Shown here: positions 2,177 through 42,287 of the stretch, piece by piece | Layout: each line of letters opens with the position of its first letter | How positions within the stretch are numbered: the stretch's first letter is position 1 | Assembly (NCBI RefSeq): GCF_964204865.1 | Contig: NC_135262.1 | Span: 7,502,001-7,566,000, forward strand | Length of the DNA: 64,000 nt | Reading direction: 5' to 3' | Source of the DNA: Styela clava | Taxonomy: Eukaryota | Notes under the pieces: model-generated | The model's input: the letters and a program-made list of their open reading frames with translations, nothing else | What the model was told of the DNA's origin: nothing | The model's database searches: none | Position numbers and translations under genes: made by a program

Positions 2177-3194
2177 ATCTATAGTATATGAAGGAATTTG
2201 CATACAATAAACAATGGAATAACTGTTATCTACAACATGACTATATTACCATGCATTTCATGTTTGCAGATTACTGCGATATATTTTTATATACCATGAG
2301 TTACGTCATCAGAATTAAATTAATACGGCAAGCATTTAAAATAGTGCTATCGGTCATAGATTTGAACATTTTGCGCAACACAAAATCATCCTAGTAAAAG
2401 TCCATACTTTTAAATACCAACCATTATCCAAATTATTTGCCAAAAAGCGGGATAAAGTATAAATTATATTTCTGACTTGCGACAATTTTTTCGTGAGTAC
2501 GTAAATACGAATGGATTTTTTTTATATTCGGGCACTTCAATGTCCGCATATATATCTTTTATTATTTTATAAATACGAAAATATGTATCAAGAATTAATT
2601 ATAATCGGGCAGTTTACCACACATTTTAAGTCCATGGATCGCCGTTGTATTTTGTAAATACGAAAATAGGAATCAAAAATTAATAATAATTGCCGTGATT
2701 AATAATAGATTGCCGTGATATTGTGCCCGAATATAACTTATTTTTGATTCCGTATTTCATTCCTTGAACTTAATATCTGTTTTTATAAATTTTGCAAGCA
2801 GTTCACGCACGAAGACTTTGAATAATGATGTATTAGTCAAATCGAAGTCCTGTTAGACCACTGGTTCTCAACCAATGGGCCATGGGCCACTGGTAAGCCT
2901 CAGAGGCATTTTGAGGTGGGCCACAAACATATTATAAATTACAAGGTTTGTTGATCTAGAACAGCTAGATATGAAAATATATATATATTAATTTGTTTGC
3001 ACATTACATCAAAATTAAAAAGAATATAACGAGAATGTCATGGCCTTCAATTCGCCAGGCTCGAACTGAGCATAACATATAAAAAATTAACAAAAAACGA
3101 ATCCACGAGGACATTGTCTCATAAATACGAACAGAACAAACATTGAATTACCCAATTCCTAATATATTAAATTTTCACGTATTCCTCACTATCC

Positions 3195-6030
3195 ATCGGA
3201 AGAAATTTCATCCACTTCTTCCTTTTAGTGTTCATCTTATTAGTGACTTCAACCACCTCATTATTCGCCGGAAGAAATTTCATTCACTTCTTCCTTTTAC
3301 TGTTCATCTTTTTAGTGACTTCAACCACCTCATTATTCGTCGGAAGAAACTTTATTCACTTCTTCCTTTTAGTGTACAGTTTTTAGTGACTTCAACCACC
3401 TCATTATTCGTCGGAAATTTTTTTATCCACTTCTCCCTTTTAGTGTTCAGCTTTTTAGTGACTTCAACCACCTCATCAATCGTCGGAATAAATTTTATCC
3501 ACTTCTTCTTTTTAGTGTTCAGCTTTTTAGTGACTTCGACCACCTCATTATTCGTCGAAAAAAATTTCATCCACTCCTTCCTTTTAGTGTTCAGCTTTTT
3601 AGTGACGTCAATCACCTTATTATTCGTCGGAAAAAATTTCATCCACTTCTTCCTTTTAGTGTTCAGCTTTATAGTGACTTCAACCACCTCATTATTCGTC
3701 GGAAGAAATTTCATCCACTTTTTCCTTTTAGTGTTCAGCTTTTTTGTGACTTCAACCACCTCATTATTCGTCGGAAAAAATTTCATTCACCTCTTCCTTT
3801 TAGTGTTCAGCTTTTTAGTGACTTCAGCCACCTAACTACCCGTCGGAAGAAATTTCATCCACTTCTTCCTTTTAGTGTTTTTAGTGACTTCAACCACCTC
3901 ATTATTCGTCGGAAATTTTTTTATCCACTTCTCCCTTTTAGTGTTCAGCTTTCTAGTGACTTCAACCACCTCACCACCCGTCGGAAGAAATTCCATCCAC
4001 TTCTTCTTTTTAGTGTTCATTTTTTTTGTGACTTCATCCACCTCACCAGCCGTCGGAAGAAATTTCATCCACTTCTTCCTTTTAGTGTTCATCTTTTCAG
4101 TGACTTCAACCACCTCATTATTCGTCGGAATAAATTTCCTCCACTTCTTCCTTTTAGTGTTCAACTTTTTAGTGACTTCAACCACCTCATTATTCGTCGG
4201 AAGAAATTTCATCCACTTCTTCCTTTTAGTGTTCAACTTTTTAGTGACTTCAACCACCTCATTATTCGTCGGAAGAAATTTCATTCACTTCTTCCTTTTA
4301 GTGTTCAGCTTTTTAGTGACTTCAACCACCTCATTATTCGTCGGAAGGTAATTTCATCCACTTCTTCTTTTTAGTGTTCAGCTTTTTAGTGACTTCAACC
4401 ACCTCATTATTCGTCGGAGGAAATTTCATCCACTTCTTCCTTTTAGTGTTCAGCTTTTTAGTGACTTCAACCACCTCATTATTCGTCGGAAGAAATTTCA
4501 TCCACTTCTTCCTTTTAGTGTTCAGCTTTTTAGTGACTTCAACCACCTCATTATTCGTCGGAAAAAATTTCATCCACCTATTCTTTTTAGTGTTCAGCTT
4601 TTAAGTGACTTCAACCACCTCATTATTCGTCGGAAGAAATTTCATCCACTTCTTCCTTTTAGTGTTCAGCTTTTTAGTGACTTCAACCACCTCATTATTC
4701 GTCGGAAGAAATTTCATCCACTTCTTCCTTTTAGTGTTCAGCTTTTTAGTGACTTTAACCACCTCATTATTCGTCGGAAGGTAATTTCATCCACTTCTTC
4801 CTTTTAGTGTTCAGCTTTTTAGTGACTTCAACCACCTCATTATTCGTCGGAAGAAATTTCATCCACTTCTTCCTTTTAGTGTTCAGCTTTTTAGTGACTT
4901 CAACCACCTCATTATTCGTCGGAAGAAATTTCATCCACTTCTTCCTTTTAGTGTTCAGCTTTTTAGTGACTTTAACCACCTCATTATTCGTCGGAAAAAA
5001 TTTCATCCACCTATTCTTTTTAGTGTTCAGCTTTTTAGTGACTTCAACCACCTCATTATTCGTCGGAAGAAATTTCATCCACTTCTTCCTTTTAGTGTTC
5101 AGCTTTTTAGTGACTTCAACCACCTCATTATTCGTCGGAAGAAATTTCATCCACTTCTTCCTTTTAGTGTTCAGCTTTTTAGTGACTTTAACCACCTCAT
5201 TATTCGTCGGAAGAAATTTCATCCACTTCTTCCTTTTAGTGTTCAGCTTTTTAGTGACTTTAACCACCTCATTATTCGTCGGAAGAAATTTCATCCACTT
5301 CTTCCTTTTAGTGTTCAGCTTTTTAGTGACTTCAACCACCTCATTATTCGTCGGAAGAAATTTCATCCACTTCTTCCTTTTAGTGTTCAGCTTTTTAGTG
5401 ACTTCAACCACCTCATTATTCGTCGGAAGAAATTTCATCCACTTCTTCCTTTTAGTGTTCAGCTTTTTAGTGACTTCAACCACATCATTATTCGTCGGAA
5501 GAAATTTCATCCACTTCTTCCTTTTAGTGTTCAGCTTTTTAGTGACTTCAACCACCTCATTATTCGTCGGAAAAAATTTCATCCACTTCTTCTTTTTAGT
5601 GTTCAGCTTTTTAGTGACTTCAACCCCCTCATTATTCGTCGGAAGAAATTTCATCCACTTCTTCCTTTTAGTGTTCAGCTTTTTAGTGACTTCAACCACC
5701 TCATTATTCGTCGGAAGAAATTTCATCCACTTCTTCCTTTTAGTGTTCAGCTTTTTAGTGACTTCAACCACCTCATTATTCGTCGGAAGAAATTTCATCC
5801 ACTTCTTCTTTTTAGTGTTCAGCTTTTTAGTACTTCAACCCCCTCATTATTCGTCGGAAGAAATTTCATCCACCCCTTCCTTTTAGTGTTCAGCTTTTCA
5901 GTGACTTCAACCACCTCATTATTCATCGGAAGAAATTTCATCCACTTCTTCCTTTTAGTGTTCAGCTTTTTAGTGACTTCAGCCACCTAACTACCCGTCG
6001 GAAGAAATTTCATCCACTTCTTCCTTTTAG
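3195..6030 (+). repeat. Right arm array, ~39 units of a 72-bp tandem repeat
   Basis: Unit TAGTGACTTCAACCACCTCATTATTCGTCGGAAGAAATTTCATCCACTTCTTCCTTTTAGTGTTCAGCTTTT repeated head to tail; most homogeneous from ~4100 to 5900. Confidence 0.97.
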
Positions 6031-28826: not shown

Positions 28827-30133
28827 CCAGAACGATGTGGATTAGTTGGAAGAGATAGATATTTTGTCATCCGCAACATAGAATGATAAAATGCCATATC
28901 AGTTTTATTGTTCTCTGTTATGTTGATTATTTTACATTAGAAATTGCTTTTTAAATGAGCGCTATTCATGAGAGACTATCGGACTGCAATATAGTTTGCA
29001 AATTTGATTCTTGAGGACTACTCGCTGCCTGTACTGCCAATCAAGCGTAATTTAAAAACTTCAGTCTTCGCTGGAGCTTTGACTAGATCTTATCATTAAT
29101 AGCTATTCGTTTGAATGACGTATTTGTTTTTGGTACCTCATTAACATATAAACTCAAAATATGTAATAATTTCTCAATCTCCTTTGATTTCAATGTAATG
29201 ACTTCACAGATATAATGATGCGACCATAGAATATAACAGCATTAATATGCGCTGCAAGTTTGTGATCCTCGTAATATATATTTTCAAATATTGAGTGATT
29301 TTAAAGTTCTATATACCGGTAATAGTTTGGCTGCATCAAGTCTAACAAAAACTTGGACAACTTGATAGAGTTTTATTATAAACCTTTTGGTATTCCCAGC
29401 AAGGTAAATGGTTCAATTTGGAATAGGCCCACTAATACAAGGTATCAAAACAATGCGATCAAAATGATGTAAGGGTGCTACTGCCAGATCTATCTTATAA
29501 TAATCTTGCGTAATTTTCTACATACCTTTGGTAAAGGCTCAAATGAGATGCTGGCCTTGATTGAATTGTCAGGCAAAGCTCTGCATTGTGAGGCATTGAC
29601 CACTTTCAACACAGTAGTCAATGCTTGCATCCCCTGCATGAATTCTCTTATTTTTTTCCTAATGTTTCTTTCATTAAGTTATATATTCACATCTAAACTA
29701 TTTTTACCAATATACTTGGAATTTTGAAAAAGCAAGTGAGGTATGATAAAAACCGATTTGCGTCTCTGGGAATTTTCTCTCTCGGAAAATGAACTTGCTG
29801 AACGGAGCTGTATTTTGGTATTAAAATATTTGCATTTTATTTGTAATCTATTGGCGTTTATACCTGTCCTAAACCAAAAAAATGTTCTATCCAATGTAAT
29901 ATTCGTTGTTTCATGAGAATTTACGTAGATTGCAAACAACTTCGTCTGAATTTGGCAGTCGTTATGACGATTCTTTCGATTAACTGAATTTTGGTAAAGA
30001 TTTCACACAGCATCAGGCATAATTGATGAAGTTAACTACTTTGACCTGAAGCTTACTATGTAAACACTCAAGGATGTGCATTATGTTCGAATCTGGAATA
30101 GCATAAAACCAAGTGGGCAAGTGAATTCCATTT

Positions 30134-30462
30134 AGGATAGGATTTACATATTTATCCCGGGGGAGAGGAAAGCCGATAAGACGGCTTATCCATATGGCGA
30201 ACCACAGCCTCTCGTCCGGTTACCATTACAAGTCTGGTATGGGATTAGTTATATTGTTTGTTTTCGGAAGCATTGACTTGGTGGTGGAGGAAGCCGTAAC
30301 CGACCAGCGGTTACGTGAACTACCCAACGACGGCGAGGAGTCCAGCAATCCTCTCGCACATAACCATCTCTGCATGGGATTCGAACCTGCGAGCAGAGTA
30401 ATTAGAGGTGCGGTGGCGAGCGTATTCCTAACGCTTAGCCCGTTGAGCCACATCGCCGCGCC
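30134..30462 (-). mobile_element. tRNA-derived SINE with (ATCCT)n tail
   Basis: Minus strand: A box TGGCTCAACGGG, B box GGTTCGAATCC, tandem ATCCT tail; very similar to the copies at 33002 and 33737. Confidence 0.9.
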
Positions 30463-31157
30463 TAATTTCAATAGAAAATGCAAGTCTGGTGTGAGTGCTC
30501 ACCAAGAGGCAGATAGATCAATTAATCATCATTTTATTCGTCAGCACAAAATAAACGTATCATAAGAAAAATACGTTTCAGACACAATGGGAATCTAACT
30601 TAAGTTGTGTGACAGGAGTCGCGAGGGACCTCGTAATGTCTTCAGGCAGCGATCGCCAATATTCTCCCGTTAGTTTCAAACTTGCCGATGTCACATGGTT
30701 GTGATTTGGACATAATGGTGAGAACGACAAACTTGAACCAATGGAAAGATTGCGATTATATTCTAGTAATGTTTATAAAAGATCTTCCTCGTCATTAAGA
30801 GGCGAAAAAACATGAATATCACGAAACATTTCTGCCGCGAGAATTGTCGCTCTTGGTACGCCATGACGTCATAAAGGATTATTTGTCGAAGTTGGTTTTT
30901 AAGCTTGAAGCCTTTGGTAATGATCACAGTGCTGCCTACGCGTTACAGGTCTTGTAAACGGAATGATTGTTATGCCCGAGATATTTTGATATCGTAAAAA
31001 AATTCGCTAAGTTCAGTCGTAAGCTTAGACGGCCGTTTTTAATCGGTAAATTGGCGTAAAGGGTAAACTACCGGTACCGTACCATCGGTCAGTAAAGACT
31101 ATTTTGCCCATTTGCTAGACTGGCCTTTCTTTATGTACTAAGGTCAGATCATGTAGG

Positions 31158-32520: not shown

Positions 32521-33001
32521 TAAAGAGAAAAGCGATTTCAACATGACGAAGGAGAAAAAGAACAACAACATAATATTGAAACGATCGTTGTGTACACTGA
32601 CGTGTCCAAAAACAAGTATAAAATTATTTGGACGAAACAGTGCAACCAACGACTACCAGTGCAACTGATTGCTTTGACGCAAACCACGGTGACGATGCGT
32701 ATTTTTGTTTAGGTCAAAGGTCAAATAATTGACGCGAACAAAACGCAAACAGGCTAAAAAGCCTTGCGTTTCAAGACTGGTCTATTTACAGATTTAGTTG
32801 ATAATCGTCATGTTTTTGGCGCGCTTTTGAGTTCGCTATTTGATTAAGGCGTATAATTAAGCACTAGCCTAGTATTGTAACCTGAATTTGCAGAAGGCCT
32901 GAAGTACGGTATGCCAGATGGAGACGACGAGGAGGAGGCAAATGAAGAAAGTGATAGAATGGAAGAAGAAGAAGAATTTGTAGAACACGTAAATACTTTT
33001 A

Positions 33002-33353
33002 GGATAGGATAGGATAGGATTTACATATTTATCCCGGGGGAGAGGAAAGCCGATAAGACGGCTTATCCATATGGCGAACCACGGCCTCTCGTCCGGTTAC
33101 CATTCCAAGTCGGGTATGGGATTAGTTTTACTGTATTGTTTGTTTTCGGAAGCATGGACTTGGTGGTGGAGGAAGCCGTAACCGACCAGCGGTTACGTGA
33201 ACCACCCAACGACGGCGAGGAGTCCAGCAATCCTCTCGCACATAACCATCCCTGCATGGGATTCGAACCTGCGAACCCACGCAGAGTAATTAGAGGTGCG
33301 GTGGCGAGCGTATTCCTAACGCTTAGCCCGTTGAGCCACACCGCCGCGCCGGG
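33002..33353 (-). mobile_element. tRNA-derived SINE inserted in LINE ORF1
   Basis: A and B boxes, (ATCCT)n tail, TSD CTTTTA (32996-33001, 33354-33359). Confidence 0.92.
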
Positions 33354-33736
33354 CTTTTAACATCAAATTTCCCTACAACAGATGGTTGAAAAGAGAAGAA
33401 ATAAAGAAATTGATATATGATCAAACGGCAATAGGAAGCATATCTAGCATATACTTTTTGGATAAGAAGAGCTGCTGGAGGATCAAATTGAAAACCAAAG
33501 AATTCTATGATAAAATAATCAAAAATGGAATTTCATACAAACACCAGGAAAATGTATACAATGCCAAACCAGAAGAGGTATATTCTAATGCCACTGAGGT
33601 AACACTCAGCTATGTACCTGTGGAAGTACCAGACAACACAATTAATAAAATTTTATCAAAATTTGGGGAGATAAAGTCGTTCAACAGATATTTGGACGAT
33701 GATGGTACGGAAAACGGAATCAGAAAGTGCAAAATA

Positions 33737-34090
33737 GGATAGGATAGGATTGGATTTACATATTTATCCCGGGGGAGAGGAAAGCCGATAAGACGGCTTA
33801 TCCATATGGCGAACCACGGCCTCTCGCCCGGTTACCATTCCAAGTCGGGTATGGGATTAGTTTTTACTGTATTGTTTGTTTTCGGAAGCATGGACTTGGT
33901 GGTGGAGGAAGCCGTAACCGACCAGCGGTTACGTGAACCACCCAACGACGGCGAGGAGTCCAGCAATCCTCTCGCACATAACCATCCCTGCATGGGATTC
34001 GAACCTGCGAACCCACGCAGAGTAATTAGAGGTGCGGTGGCGAGCGTATTCCTAACGCTTAGCCCGTTGAGCCACACCGCCGCGCCAACC
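33737..34090 (-). mobile_element. tRNA-derived SINE inserted in LINE ORF1
   Basis: Nearly identical to 33002-33353; TSD AAATA (33732-33736, 34091-34095). Confidence 0.92.
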
Positions 34091-35505
34091 AAATAATCAT
34101 GCATAGTGACATTCCACCAATAGTCAGACTTCCAAGTAGCTGTACAGGTGATGAATTTGGGGTTTATTACACCACAAGACCAGCTAACTTGAGGAAATTT
34201 GACAATTGGTGTTACATATGCCATTCTCTAAGTCACGAAGTGGAGGCTTGTCCAAGACGAAGGAAATGCAAATATTGTGGAGGAAAAGGAAAACCCCATT
34301 TAGAGAAAGATTGTATTGAGAAAAAACAAATCCAAAAAAGTCAAAATGCTAATCAAGAAAATACTGAAAATACAGATACGTCAAAATCTTATGAAAGAGC
34401 TGCCAGAGATCAAACCGTTTCCGTAATCAGTGAAATAACAAAAGAATTACAGAAACAAACAAGTGTAAACAAACAAAATACACAGTCACCATCAACAAAA
34501 ACTGGAAATAAAAATATATCCCAGAATAATGCCGGAGTCTCAAACTCAGGGCAAGAAATAACTAGAGGGAATCCAATAAATAACGTTGAGATGAGAAATA
34601 CAATACAAAAAACAATAAATCCTGAATCCTCGAAGAAAATAACAAATACCACAATAGATACTAGGTCAGCAAATAGCAATGTTGCGAAGATAAATCCCAG
34701 GAAGGACAAGAGCGCCGAGAATAAACCAGACTCATCAATGGAAGCCACTGAAACTGAAAATATGTTAACAGCCAGCAACCAGTCGGAGAACAAGAATGAA
34801 ATTCTACTCATTGGCGACTCCCAGATGGCGCACATGCAAAGAAAAATTAAAAACAAAAAGATTATAAAAAGAACTTACTCAGGAGGAACTTTTGAACGCA
34901 TAACCTTCGAAATAGAAAATGAACAAAGGAAATTTGGAAAAATTGTTGTTTATGCAGGTACAAACGATACCCATAAAACAGACGACGAAATTAAACAAGA
35001 TATACGGGAAATGATACACAAAGCAAGGGAATATAGTGACAATGTTTATATCTGTGGCATCATACCAATTCATGGAAGAAGTGCTGGTAAATATGGTTGT
35101 GACAGGATTAACAAACAACTTGAAAAAGAAGCACTGAAACAAGGAGTAGTATTTGTCCCAAAACCAGATTCTTTCTCAGAAGAAAAAATCATGGACAGCT
35201 ATTATTTAGATGATATGATGCATCTCAGTGCAACAGGAGCGGAAGTAGTCATCGAAAATATAAACGAATATGTGACACTTAGAGAACCAAAGCTAAAAAG
35301 GGCGACAGACGACAGCCCTCCAATAGCCAAGAAGCATGTGAAAAAATACCAACATGCATTGGATAAAACTGGAAGTTGAAACTCAACTACACTGATACAT
35401 GCAATTTGATAGCCCACATTAGCTCGTATTAGAAGTGAAGTATTTTTTTGCTTTCATAGGGAGATATTATCATAGTTTTCTTTTTCTTCATACAGGATAC
35501 ACATC

Positions 35506-38500
35506 ATGCATTTTAAAGAGGGAGTAAAGGTTTTAACTTATAACGTTAAGGGAATTCGAAACATGGCTAAAAGAAAATCAATTTTTGAATTTTTAAAAAG
35601 GGGAAAATCAGACATAATTTGCCTGCAAGAAACGCATTGTGGGTCAGATGAAGAAGCAGACGATTGGACAAAGGAATGGGGGAATAACGCATTTTGGTCC
35701 GTAAGTTCTAATATAACATGTGGTGTAGCAATTTTATTTTCAAGTAAAATGGATTCAGACTTATTTATTAAAGAAATTGACATAAATGGTAGATATATAA
35801 TTTTGACTTGGCAATCATCTGAATCTCTCCATATGTTAATAAATATATATGCACCAAATTCTTGTAGGGATAGAAAAGAATTTTTTGAGTTTATTGATAG
35901 TAAAATTGAATTTTATATAAGTTTGTTAACAACTCCACTATATCAAATTTGGCTGGGAGGTGACTTTAATTGCGTGTTAGATAAACTAGATAAATACCCG
36001 GAACAAAATTTCAGAAGAGATAATAGTATTGTAAAATTGGAGGAAATTATAGATAAATGGAATCTTGTTGATATTTGGCGTCATTTAAATTTAAATTCTA
36101 AAGTATATACATGGAAACAAAAAAGAGGCTGTTCGCGAATGGCCCAGAGTCGTTTAGATAGATGGTATTTATCTTCAAATCAAATCTATAATGTTATTAG
36201 AACAGATGTTGAAATGGCCACCTTTTCTGACCACTATCCATTTCAAATTGTTACTTCATCCTTTAAAAATGTAAAAAGAGGACCGGGTTATTGGAAATTT
36301 AATGCACAACTGATTGAATTTGAGTATTTTATCCTGGGAATTGAATCAATACTACAGGCATGGCATTTTAAATTATGTAACTTGGATGATGCAGAAAAGG
36401 GAGCTTTTTGGGACACATGTAAATCCAAAATAAAAATATGGGCAATCCATTGTAGTAAAATAAAAAAAGAATCAGACAATCAAAGGGAAGATAAATTACT
36501 AGTAAAATATAGAGAAGCATACAGGGAAATGCAAGATAATATAGAGGATGAGGACACTCATCAAGCAATACATGATACAGAATTAGAAATTAAGGAGTAT
36601 TATGAACAAAAATCCAAGGGGGCAATAATTAGGGCTAGAGTTAATTGGGCGGAAAAAGGGGAAAAATCGAATAAATATTTTTTGAATTTAGAGAAATCTA
36701 AAGGTAAAGCAAAAATGTTCAAATCTTTGAGGAAATCTGACAACTCTTTAGTTTATACATGTAAAGAAATTCAGGAAGAACAGGTCCAATTTTATAAAAA
36801 TCTGTATCAAAGTGATGAAAATTTGGACGTTAATATTCAAAATTATTTATTAAATAATTATCAGCAAAAAGTGTCAGATGAGCAAAAACAAGAAATGGAT
36901 AACGATTTAACAGAAGAGGAATTGGAAAATGCGTTCAAACAAATGAAGTTAAATAAATCCCCCGGCCTAGATGGTTTAACAAAAGAGTTTTATGTCAAAT
37001 TTTGGAAACAATTGCGCCCAATTCTCTTACTAATCTATAATAGTTATCATAAACAATCATGTCTGTCTCAGAACACAAGTCTTGGTGTAATAACTTTACT
37101 TTATAAAAAAGGAGATAAAAATGATATAAAAAATTGGAGACCTATTACTCTACTTAATTTCGAATATAAATTAATCGCAAAAGTTTTAGCTTTGAGAATG
37201 AAAGCAGTACTGCCTGATATAATAAATCATGACCAAACAGGATTTATTGAAGGAAGAACGATTCATGAAAATTTATTAACAATAAGAGATGACATTTTTT
37301 GGGCGAATAAACAAAACCAACCGTTAATAATTTTTAGTATAGACCAAGAAAAGGCTTACGATACTGTTGATAGAGTTTTGTTACTAAGAATATTAAAAAA
37401 AGTTAATTTTGGTAATTATTTCATTCGATGGGTCAATACCCTATTTAACAACACCAATGCAAAAATAATAACAAATGGATTTTTATCAAAGCAATTTAGT
37501 ATAACACGAGGAGTTAGACAAGGTTGCCCCCTTGCCCCACTTTTATATATTATAATGTCCGAATTGTTAGCATCCAGCATCAGATACAATAGAGCAATAA
37601 TAGGTTTTCAAAATTGTGCAGGAGATAGAGAGAAATATAAAGGTTTTGCGGATGACACTATTGTCACAGTAGAAAGTTTATCCTCCATAGATGAAGTATT
37701 AAAATTAATGGCAGAATTTGAAAAAGCTACAGGCTTGAGAATAAATATTCCAAAATGCAACATAATGTTGTGTGGGTCAGCAAAACGGCTAAACTTAGGA
37801 CCTTCATACAAGGGTATTCAAATTCAAGAAGAGCTTAAAATTCTAGGAGCTTATATAGGAAACAATGTTGTATCAAGAGATAAAAACTGGTTGAAAATCA
37901 TTAACTCAATTCAAAATGTAGTAAATTTATGGCAGGGACGAAAGTTATCAATGATAGGAAAAATTATTATTGTCAAATCATTAATGTTATCCAAAGTGTG
38001 GCACATTGCCAATTTTGAAATTATGCCAGGAAACTTCGTTCGAAAATTAGAATCTATAATATGGAAATTCATTTGGAATAATAAAACTCAACTAGTGTCA
38101 AGACAAATTACATCTAATATTTTCACATCCGGAGGTTTGAATATGTTAGACCTCAGGAGCCAAATAAAAGCTCTTCAGGTCAAATGGATTTTTAAAATCC
38201 TCAAAAACGAGAGTAGGCCATGGAGTAAAAGAGCCAATTATTTTATTAATAATTATTGTAATATTTTGTCCAAAGATAATTTGGAATGTCTGTATTTGAA
38301 AGTCCAATTTGACAAAGTAACTACCATACCTAATTTTTATACCGCCATTATCAATTCATTCAAGGATATTAAGTTGGAGAGAAATCATCCCTTTAATATT
38401 ACAGAGGTTAAAAATGAAATTTTATGGTACAATCCCTTAATCTCAGAGCAAAATTATAGATTTTCGTCCAAATGGATCCAAGCAAAAGTCATTTCTGTGG

Positions 38501-39306: not shown

Positions 39307-40051
39307 AGAAATTGAGATTGTCTTGATTTAGGAGGTTTGACTATATAAATGATTGCATAACATAGACAGATTAAATGAAAATCTAGTAGCATGATAGGTT
39401 TTTGAATTTTCTGTCTAATTTTTTTGAAACCTTCTCTTTTTCCATGCTAATATAAAATAATTAATTATATATGTACATAAAAATGTTATATTTATGACGA
39501 AATATGGACAATCTTCAATACAAACGGATATATGACGAAAAATGGATTATCATCACTGGGTTTGATATGTATTAAAAATTGTTTATCCAACTGTTTTAAT
39601 TTTCCTCAATTACCGTAATTGGAACGCAATACATGCAATTGGTTTCCAACAAACAAAAAAAAAATAAAATTATATAAAACAAAAACTGAAAATTTAATTG
39701 GATTCAAAAACATAATTAAATAATTCCATATTGACTCTGGAATTGAATTTGGCAAAAAAAAAAAAAAAGTTTTTGGCGTTTTGGTGAAAAGCCGAAAGGT
39801 GCGTGTTATCTATAACCAGTCAGTTTCTAATGTCAATACGGTACTTGTTAGCACTGTTTATTGACAGCGTTTTCATTCCACCACCGTTCATACTGTCAGT
39901 GTCAGACAGTAATGGCAGAATGGTGACTGGTGACAATCACGAGTTTTACCCGTGAAAGTGGATTTTCGCTCGCGTGTATTTTCGGGGAGCGCTAGCGTGC
40001 AATTGTCATGAAATCCAATCTGGCCTGTCGGTAGTTATCAAGTTGTATTAA

Positions 40052-40766: not shown

Positions 40767-42287
40767 ATGTTTAACCCACTGAACTTATTATCTGCCGAAT
40801 CACTTATCTTAATTTGCACACTTTTCTTGCTTGTGAGATATCTTCTTCAACGCAAATGGAGCATTCTCTCATCCTGGAATATTCCGCACGACCCTCCATC
40901 TGTTAGAAATTTTGGTCACGCAAAGATCATAGTATCAGAAAAAGTTTTTGAATACGAGTTAGAATGCAAGAAAAAATTTGGTCCCATATGGGGGTATTAC
41001 GTCATGACCGCTCCGAGAATTGTCATCCATGATCCAGAGATTCTGAAAGTAATATATATCAAAGAATTTTCAAAATTTCCAAATCGAGTGAATAAATTCA
41101 GACTCGTTCATGGAGAAGAATTAGCAAATGGTTTGTTGTTTACGCTTGATGATCAATGGAAGCGCATCAGAACGACTATGACGCCTACTTTTTCCACAGC
41201 AAAATTGAGGCAAATGGTTGGAATAGTGAAACGGTGTGGTGACGATACTATTGATGTATTTCGTCGCAAAATAAATTCAACAGATGGAATTTTTGTGGCA
41301 AGAAGTGTTTTTGGGGGACTTTCGATGGACGTTGTTTGTGCGGCTGCATTTAGTACTGACGTAAATTCGCAAGACGAAACCAAGATACAGCCTCGTATAA
41401 CAGCCAATGCAAATAAGTTTTTCAGGACTGGATTTTTTCAAGCTTCATTTCTGATTGCTGCAATATTTCCGTTTTTAGAGGGTTTGGTATCAAAACATGC
41501 AAGCCAGAGAAGTCATATTGTGTATTTTCGTGACTTGTGTCATGATTTAATGGAACAAAGACGTAAAGAAAAAGGGGATAGAGTCGATTTAATGCAATTA
41601 ATGTCAGATGCGGAAGTTCCAGAATCAGAATTGAAAGATGATGCTAAAAAGGGAATGTCAGAATTGGAGATAATCGGAAATTCTATCACAATGCTTTTTG
41701 CTGGATATGAAACAACAAGTACAGCTATGTCATTTTTGGCATACAACTTAGCCCAGTATCCCGAAACCCAGAAGCAACTTCAGACAGAAATTGATAAAAT
41801 GTTCGAAGAATGTGTTGAGTTGGATTATGATAGTGTAAATCAGCTGAAATTTCTTGATATGTGCTTGAATGAGAGTTTACGTTTGTATTGCCCCATTCCA
41901 CGGAACTCAAGAATCGCCAAGGAAGAAGTCACCATTGGTGGGCTCACCATTCCGAAAGGATCACTTGTAGCCATTCCGATTTATGCCTTGTGTCATGATC
42001 CCGACTACTGGGAAGATCCGATGGAATTCAAGCCAGAAAGAATGAGAAATATGGATGAAATTGACAACATTATTTTCCAACCGTTTGGCTGTGGACCAAG
42101 AAATTGCATTGGAATGAGGTTTGCAATGATGGAAATCAAAATCACATTCTGCAAACTCCTGCATCTATTTAGCTTTGAACCAACAGCTGAAACACCGAAG
42201 CCACCACTGAAGCTTAAATATGATTTGACCACCAGATCTAAAGTTAATTTTAATCTGAAAGTCGTGCCCAGAGATAGAAACCCCTAA
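40767..42287 (+). CDS. Cytochrome P450 clan 3 (CYP3-like), intronless, copy 1
   Basis: N-terminal membrane anchor, WKRIR, AGYETTS, ESLR, PERM, FGCGPRNCIG heme motif. Confidence 0.95.
   Translation: MFNPLNLLSAESLILICTLFLLVRYLLQRKWSILSSWNIPHDPPSVRNFGHAKIIVSEKVFEYELECKKKFGPIWGYYVMTAPRIVIHDPEILKVIYIKEFSKFPNRVNKFRLVHGEELANGLLFTLDDQWKRIRTTMTPTFSTAKLRQMVGIVKRCGDDTIDVFRRKINSTDGIFVARSVFGGLSMDVVCAAAFSTDVNSQDETKIQPRITANANKFFRTGFFQASFLIAAIFPFLEGLVSKHASQRSHIVYFRDLCHDLMEQRRKEKGDRVDLMQLMSDAEVPESELKDDAKKGMSELEIIGNSITMLFAGYETTSTAMSFLAYNLAQYPETQKQLQTEIDKMFEECVELDYDSVNQLKFLDMCLNESLRLYCPIPRNSRIAKEEVTIGGLTIPKGSLVAIPIYALCHDPDYWEDPMEFKPERMRNMDEIDNIIFQPFGCGPRNCIGMRFAMMEIKITFCKLLHLFSFEPTAETPKPPLKLKYDLTTRSKVNFNLKVVPRDRNP

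Follow-up and report, generated by a model that had tools for sequence, protein, structure and literature searches.

The LINE and its family

The 64,000 nucleotides (nt) of Styela clava DNA analysed here (NCBI RefSeq GCF_964204865.1, NC_135262.1, positions 7,502,001 to 7,566,000; hereafter the window) carry on their forward strand a long interspersed nuclear element (LINE) with two open reading frames (ORFs), which, judging from its sequence, is a young member of the L1 clade (Table 1). The original prediction, made from the letters of the window, held that the whole of ORF1 could be an intron of this LINE, or that ORF2 could be released by spliced-leader (SL) trans-splicing. Here we argue that RNA of the LINE probably receives an SL by trans-splicing at its 5' end and that ORF2 is likely read from this same, unspliced two-gene RNA, a reading to which we assign a probability of about 0.64. 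Two standing questions are touched by this reading: by what means a LINE preserves its 5' end and promoter from one RNA cycle to the next, and how ORF2, the second gene of a two-gene RNA, comes to be translated.

The element combines features expected of the L1 clade, with ORF1 upstream, a poly(A) tail, a target-site duplication, 5'-truncated copies and an ORF2 in which an apurinic/apyrimidinic (AP) endonuclease (APE), a reverse transcriptase (RT) and a zinc motif follow one another (PF03372, PF00078 and PF13966). Among solved structures, ORF2 is closest to human L1 ORF2p (E 8e-87, against 6e-22 for R2), and the closest database proteins are 29-36% identical, with no near relative from another tunicate among them. 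The C-terminus of ORF1 matches PF13472 (E 9e-8) and the ORF1 esterase in PDB 4c1b (E 4e-6). In ORF1, SGNH esterase domains are known mainly from CR1/L2-type elements. The window LINE may be labelled L1/Tx1, with L1 proper and Tx1 as its candidate places; the flanks of its eight genomic copies are unrelated by eye, and the target-site specificity of the Tx1 type was thus not seen among them. In the ORF1 of the window copy, as in those of L029 and L039 (L numbers denote loci), a weak match to RRM and motifs like cysteine-histidine knuckles, recognized by eye, accompany the C-terminal SGNH esterase. L1-clade LINEs of human, fish and frog share with the window LINE the series of ORF1, spacer, APE-RT-CCHC ORF2, poly(A) and duplication (PMC5381506), whereas the window LINE differs from L1 in carrying SL relics instead of a long promoter-bearing 5' untranslated region (UTR) and in the esterase that ends its ORF1.

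The genome (377 Mb) holds eight full-length copies of this family, 98-99.5% identical, and nine truncated copies at an identity of at least 98% were found among the 40 of 202 candidates that were scored. Both frames are open in four of the eight, and ORF1 is open over 579-585 codons in six of the seven siblings of the window copy. Both short interspersed nuclear element (SINE)-like insertions that break ORF1 in the window are absent from all seven siblings. They are therefore private to one copy and no rescue route for ORF2 is needed, so that rescue of ORF2 from the SINEs falls away as a motive for the splicing proposed earlier. The SINE-like family itself is abundant, with a further member at 30123-30468 of the window.

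Table 1. Features of the LINE, in window coordinates.
Feature	Position	Strand	Remark
5' target-site duplication, 10 nt	32812-32821	+	identical to 39769-39778 past the poly(A)
SL relic, variant B	32832-32848	+	final 17 nt of the 21-nt exon, exact; matches exon of arrays L078-L080
Second, older SL relic, variant A	32850-32861	+	11 nt exact at 3' end; same relic in L029 and L032
Remaining 5' UTR, without ATG	32862-32910	+	acceptor-like site ends at 32893, its use putative
Donor-like 9-mer across ORF1 start	32906-32914	+	ACG context private to window copy
ORF1, broken by two SINEs	32911-35379	+	C-terminal SGNH/GDSL esterase
SINE-like insertion 1	32996-33353	-	antisense; ends uncertain by 6 nt; absent from 7/7 siblings
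SINE-like insertion 2	33726-34090	-	antisense; 99% like insertion 1; absent from 7/7 siblings
Inter-ORF spacer, 126 nt	35380-35505	+	T-rich; without AATAAA or ATTAAA
Upstream acceptor-like tract	35443-35459	+	differs between copies
Strong acceptor-like tract, 10 nt ahead of ORF2 ATG (35506)	35476-35495	+	motif only
ORF2, open, 1266 aa	35506-39306	+	AP endonuclease, reverse transcriptase, zf-RVT
3' UTR and 15-nt poly(A) (39754-39768)	39307-39768	+	
3' target-site duplication	39769-39778	+	

Spliced-leader relics at LINE 5' ends

The main feature of the element, overlooked in the original prediction, is a pair of SL relics at 32832-32861, which lie inside the target-site duplication and ahead of ORF1. 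The copies are not alike at their 5' ends, where short motifs ending in TAAG are found; SL-like ends are present in seven of the eight copies and are often stacked, the window copy having two. A search of the genome with the SL motif gave 1,177 matches, against none for a control pattern, and most of them lie in tandem arrays whose unit comprises a 21-nt exon, a GTAAG or GTGAG donor, a hairpin, a T-rich site and a common upstream element. The arrays at L078-L080 and L216 combine a short exon, a GT donor, a T-rich Sm-like site and repetition, as predicted SL RNA genes should; an Rfam search of the arrays gave no match. Of the final 13 nt of the exon, 12 are shared with the Ciona SL (PMC1488885, Table 1), and whereas Ciona has one major SL, the S. 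clava genome has several exon variants, three of which were seen on contig C4. In the C4 arrays (about 23.30-23.45 Mb) variants A, B and C alternate, with GTAAG donors, and the arrays on C6 (about 19.27-19.78 Mb) have a 490-bp unit with a GTGAG donor and several hundred matches.

We classed 149 distinct SL-motif sites, the first-listed matches of four pattern searches and hence a sample biased to low-numbered contigs. An ORF1 of a LINE follows the SL at 91 sites (47 families at 90%), among which three loci with tandem SLs are counted twice and for which the references come partly from the same loci; the others are array genes or inserts in them (8), copia-like long terminal repeat (LTR) elements (7), members of a hairpin family (14), SINE look-alikes (14) and a remainder of 15. 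The look-alikes are genomic SINE variants in which 15 nt resemble the 3' end of the SL, probably by chance. At none of the 149 sites does the SL head an ORF2. Seen from the ORF2 side, SL matches occur in 16 of 79 L1-type loci (drawn from 144 rows of one search and from the family matches), always 1,315-2,946 nt upstream of ORF2, and none of the 79 has an SL close to the ORF2 start. Seven candidates for an SL-ORF2 head were rejected: L048, L071, L074 and L077 hold no ORF2, and in L281, L282 and L326 ORF1 sequence comes first.

Siblings carry SL variant A or B at one and the same junction, and in 11 copies from seven families the first base follows directly on an AG situated 7-41 nt inside a longer sibling. 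Two further offsets do not fit this pattern, one being a lone additional G and the other an insert of 6 nt. Inside its duplication L033 has one SL more, together with about 150 nt of foreign DNA, and at the genomic source of this DNA, L422, a T-tract AG occupies precisely the position at which the SL is found in L033. In the DNA copies, as distinct from RNA, the SL is thus joined precisely at a genomic AG, both in L033 against L422 and in the 11 AG-shifted joins.

We consider it very likely that the full-length RNA is SL trans-spliced before it is copied back. The earlier suggestion of SL trans-splicing stands to this extent: the host is probably an SL trans-splicing tunicate whose machinery the LINE meets, but the evidence points to the 5' end before ORF1. 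Look-alikes of the P450 frames in the window are commonest in Chordata, a lead in favour of such a host. Transcription of a copy would start upstream of it, probably at promoters in the flank, given a 5' UTR of only 45-90 nt that consists largely of SL relics and given that splicing needs sequence ahead of the AG. The spliceosome would then attach a new SL either at the terminal AG of the existing relic or at a nearby downstream AG, and joining at an AG upstream of that relic would stack relics. In this way trans-splicing would trim the flank and regenerate the 5' end of the element in each cycle; as the SL's own final AG can be reused as an acceptor, that end would be self-renewing. ORF1p and ORF2p made from the SL-capped RNA would, by analogy with L1, copy it in cis. 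R2 has its 5' end trimmed by a ribozyme, as L1Tc reportedly does, and the window LINE would resemble both in that its 5' end is cut from a longer co-transcript, although here the host spliceosome would cut and would add a cap. If this is true, many LINE families of this chordate genome borrow the host SL, which would trim the flanking transcript, provide a cap and supply the AG needed in the following round; the SL would mark complete reverse transcription, and the SL variants would let copying lineages be counted.

SL relics as such are already known. In dinoflagellate retrogenes the SL has been copied into DNA at the 5' end and stacked over cycles (Song et al., 2017, PMC5585692; Slamovits and Keeling, 2008, cited there), and the AG of the SL in these relics is a potential acceptor for the next SL (PMC5585692). 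The carriers there are host genes of protists, whereas in S. clava they are mostly autonomous LINEs, with several SL variants that make cycles traceable. Genomic SL exons on transposable elements, possibly trans-spliced and retro-transcribed, have been described in Schistosoma mansoni (PMC5832876); these are six cases, which according to the authors are perhaps assembly chimeras, compared with the 91 sites in 47 families found here with their duplications, variant swaps and AG-shifted joins. A literature search that covered few subscription journals found no report of SL-headed LINEs in tunicates or chordates, of a trans-spliced ORF2 mRNA or of SL relics on this scale in tunicate LINEs.

SLs were also seen in other settings. 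One heads a short LSM-domain ORF that resembles a processed host pseudogene. In a copia-like LTR element (L062, L063, L066, L067, L284 and L285) SL variant A lies within each of the two LTRs, about 35 nt short of its end, and may have become part of the LTR. About 15 short SL-headed pieces of 100-235 nt (L071, L074, L077, L262, L278, L279, L288, L289, L300, L303, L304, L309, L310, L313 and L319), several with an inverted copy just upstream, are possibly ends of Penelope-like elements. Finally, in the C4 SL array an L1-type element of the AP-endonuclease type, with both frames open (513 and 1157 codons; L185:1754-7520), sits within an SL RNA gene directly behind exon and donor, and the rest of the gene follows its poly(A); L080, L206 and L210 are further cases, and near the L185 element another poly(A) is followed by the start of an SL intron. 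This looks like a family that targets SL genes. NeSL and CRE target SL genes as well, with an endonuclease of a different class.

The acceptor-like site ahead of ORF2

All letters and positions of the original prediction are correct, including the 126-nt spacer, the tracts ending at 35459 and 35495, the ATGs at 32911 and 35506 and the lack of an ATG from 32822-32910. The 3' splice-site motif before ORF2 is likewise present, and under an ad hoc acceptor score, devised after the site had been seen, its AG at 35495 ranks first among the 441 sense AGs of the element and is equalled by one of 5,659 flanking AGs. Mononucleotide shuffling gives the site a P of 0.0002, which rises to 0.025 when pyrimidine runs are kept intact, and a YAG follows such a pyrimidine tract within 8 nt in 18% of cases. 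The tract at 35476-35495 is identical in all eight copies, but this says little since the copies are so similar overall. The spacer, whose T content is 0.36 against 0.19 in ORF1 (measured on sibling L033), has no stable fold (z 0.17).

Comparison with other LINEs places the motif in a wider class. From 41 clusters of L1-type elements, seven without a usable ORF1 were skipped, nine had short spacers and two lacked an AG; four of the 23 spacers scored beat shuffles at P<0.05, compared with 0 of 11 from the other LINE type. As outside controls we used 80 metagenome loci of unknown hosts, of which 21 were distinct with an ORF1 and 16 had a spacer of at least 40 nt: 15 of these 16 are T-rich, eight score at least 11, one reaches 15.7 against 15.3 in the window, and two fall below P 0.05. 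Fish L1 spacers are T-rich too, without trans-splicing (PMC5381506). T-rich spacers with an AG in L1-type relatives of other hosts thus argue for a clade-wide motif class, though the window site is a good one. Among the S. clava loci, L041, L044, L136, L139, L187 and L188 have an L1-type ORF2 without an in-frame ATG near the endonuclease start and are candidates for a non-AUG start or splicing.

We think it probable that ORF2 is read from the unspliced, SL-capped two-gene RNA, given that, with the cis preference of such elements, a separate mRNA as the chief source of its product would be expected to have left SL-ORF2 copies. A 20-letter pattern running from the last base of the acceptor into ORF2, which would also catch cis- or trans-spliced copies, occurs at eight genomic places, all of them full-length. 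Translation of ORF2 would begin by re-initiation or by internal entry on the T-rich spacer, both of which have been proposed for fish L1 with its T-rich spacer, long spacers being found in fish and frog L1 alike (PMC5381506); the acceptor-like tract would then mostly be a by-product of the T-rich spacer, used rarely or never. The relics offer a direct handle on the question of whether ORF2 has an mRNA of its own.

Several observations weigh against this account of ORF2. The missing SL-ORF2 copies are a weak argument, as RNA without ORF1 retrotransposes poorly, and human L1 RNAs without ORF1p move in trans at a low level only (PMC5860796). A short upstream ATG frame in the spacer (at about 35398) would hinder simple re-initiation. 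The score of 15.3 at 35495 far exceeds those of the AGs at which LINE 5' ends are joined (1-6) and of the L422 AG (7.3), and donors upstream of 35495 are weak, the best scoring 3.4. In the sister family L036, whose ORF2 is 72% identical, a comparable tract and AG have been kept 7 nt ahead of the ATG, displaced by one base, and the match of L036 to the window element begins at the tract. Similar T-tract AGs stand 10-102 nt before the ATGs of five intronless cytochrome P450 frames, which form a tandem cluster in the window (40767-42287, 46350, 49188, 52205 and 56010) and are likely trans-spliced host genes. Lastly, and bearing on the 5' end as well, no RNA read joining an SL to the window element was seen among the assembled contigs listed.

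The weak upstream donors and the tract kept in L036 would suit a tunicate-type operon, in which the RNA, SL-capped at its 5' end, would in part undergo a second trans-splicing at 35496 and so yield a separate ORF2 mRNA whose product acts on the full-length RNA. One SL would then replace the promoter and a second would make the ORF2 mRNA, with splice choice setting the ratio of genome RNA to RT mRNA. This is also consistent with the top rank of an AG after which the ORF2 ATG, 10 nt on, is the first, with the predicted SL machinery of the host and with Ciona, where downstream operon genes are SL-resolved and the 5'-most operon genes are mostly single-exon (PMC2760879); Ciona operons and the window LINE have in common a single-exon upstream gene and, close ahead of the following start codon, an unpaired acceptor (PMC1488885, PMC2760879). 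They differ in that neither an SL-ORF2 product nor an ORF1 product ending at the acceptor was found for the window LINE in the DNA copies searched: there is no SL-ORF2 copy at the 149 SL sites, the 79 loci or the eight family places, and no ORF1-only copy ends at the acceptor, all eight family matches spanning the spacer, although Ciona polyadenylates the upstream mRNA at that point (PMC1488885). In Ciona the first functional acceptor is the one chiefly used for trans-splicing (PMC11155486). For these two reasons above all we regard the operon as unlikely; the run-preserving P of 0.025 and the few spacers that beat shuffles (4/23, 0/11 and, in other hosts, 2/16) speak against it as well.

Possible template switching and cis-splicing, and contigs of putative transcripts

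A quite improbable alternative concerns the 5' end, where the RT could jump to SL RNA or to an SL-capped host mRNA at the end of cDNA synthesis, the LINE having an internal promoter. Such template switching would account for the SL and some 150 nt from an unrelated locus inside the duplication of L033, as no LINE lies behind that locus in the assembly, and for the odd fragments that separate some relics (L035, L308 and L312); for a 26-nt piece of the L035 5' end no second genomic source was found. However, across 47 families the joins end exactly at the last base of the exon, without letters of the SL intron, and the shifted joins follow an AG in 11 of 13 offsets, whereas switching would land anywhere in the host mRNA.

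Least credible of all is the removal of the entire ORF1 (32909-35495) as an intron, like that of retroviral env. In its favour, GT and AG are both present in all eight copies, weak donors exist in Ciona (PMC11155486), and the env mRNA of Oikopleura Tor3a LTR elements arises in this way (PMC4402516). Against it, the GT is part of the ATG context, no comparable overlap with a GT is conspicuous where ORF1 begins in the sister families compared, and none of the eight places with the ORF2 start lacks ORF1 or the segment 32909-35495, although retrocopies of this kind are known from spliced human L1 RNAs (PMC5860796). The donor letters at 32909 are there as described, but they do no better than chance: with generic weights they score 2.2 in the window copy, 3.4 in one copy and 0.4 in six of the eight. 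The alignment of copies reads ACG/GT in the window copy only, GAG/GT in one and GAA/GT in six, which lack the G at -1, and the ACG context stems from five extra bases that all seven other copies lack. Human SpIREs (PMC5860796) and Tor3a env (PMC4402516) are internally cis-spliced retroelement RNAs with demonstrated products, and none were found for the window LINE among the DNA copies searched and the contig joints listed.

Contigs of 4 of 15 runs, whose status as RNA is a guess, were aligned to the element and give no evidence for or against any of these readings. Contigs of X1 (35115-35833), X2 (34091-35663) and X4 (34995-35864) run unspliced across 35495, as every reading allows. Among the 15 joints listed out of a longer set (316 more), none falls at the proposed sites, but SINEs swamp the lists and a 21-nt SL tip, being shorter than the assembly word, would probably be clipped; within the same limits none of 24 loose ends listed (1,632 more) falls at 35496, which carries no weight either way. 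One X1 contig extends 22 letters beyond 32856, equal to the SL length plus one base as in L033, which we take as a hint only. Contigs from all four runs join across SINE-like insertion 1, and the 5-nt difference at 32904 recurs in contigs of X1, X2 and X10.

Elsewhere in the window, a 72-bp tandem repeat forms two blocks in opposite orientation, at 518-1043 and 3060-5831.

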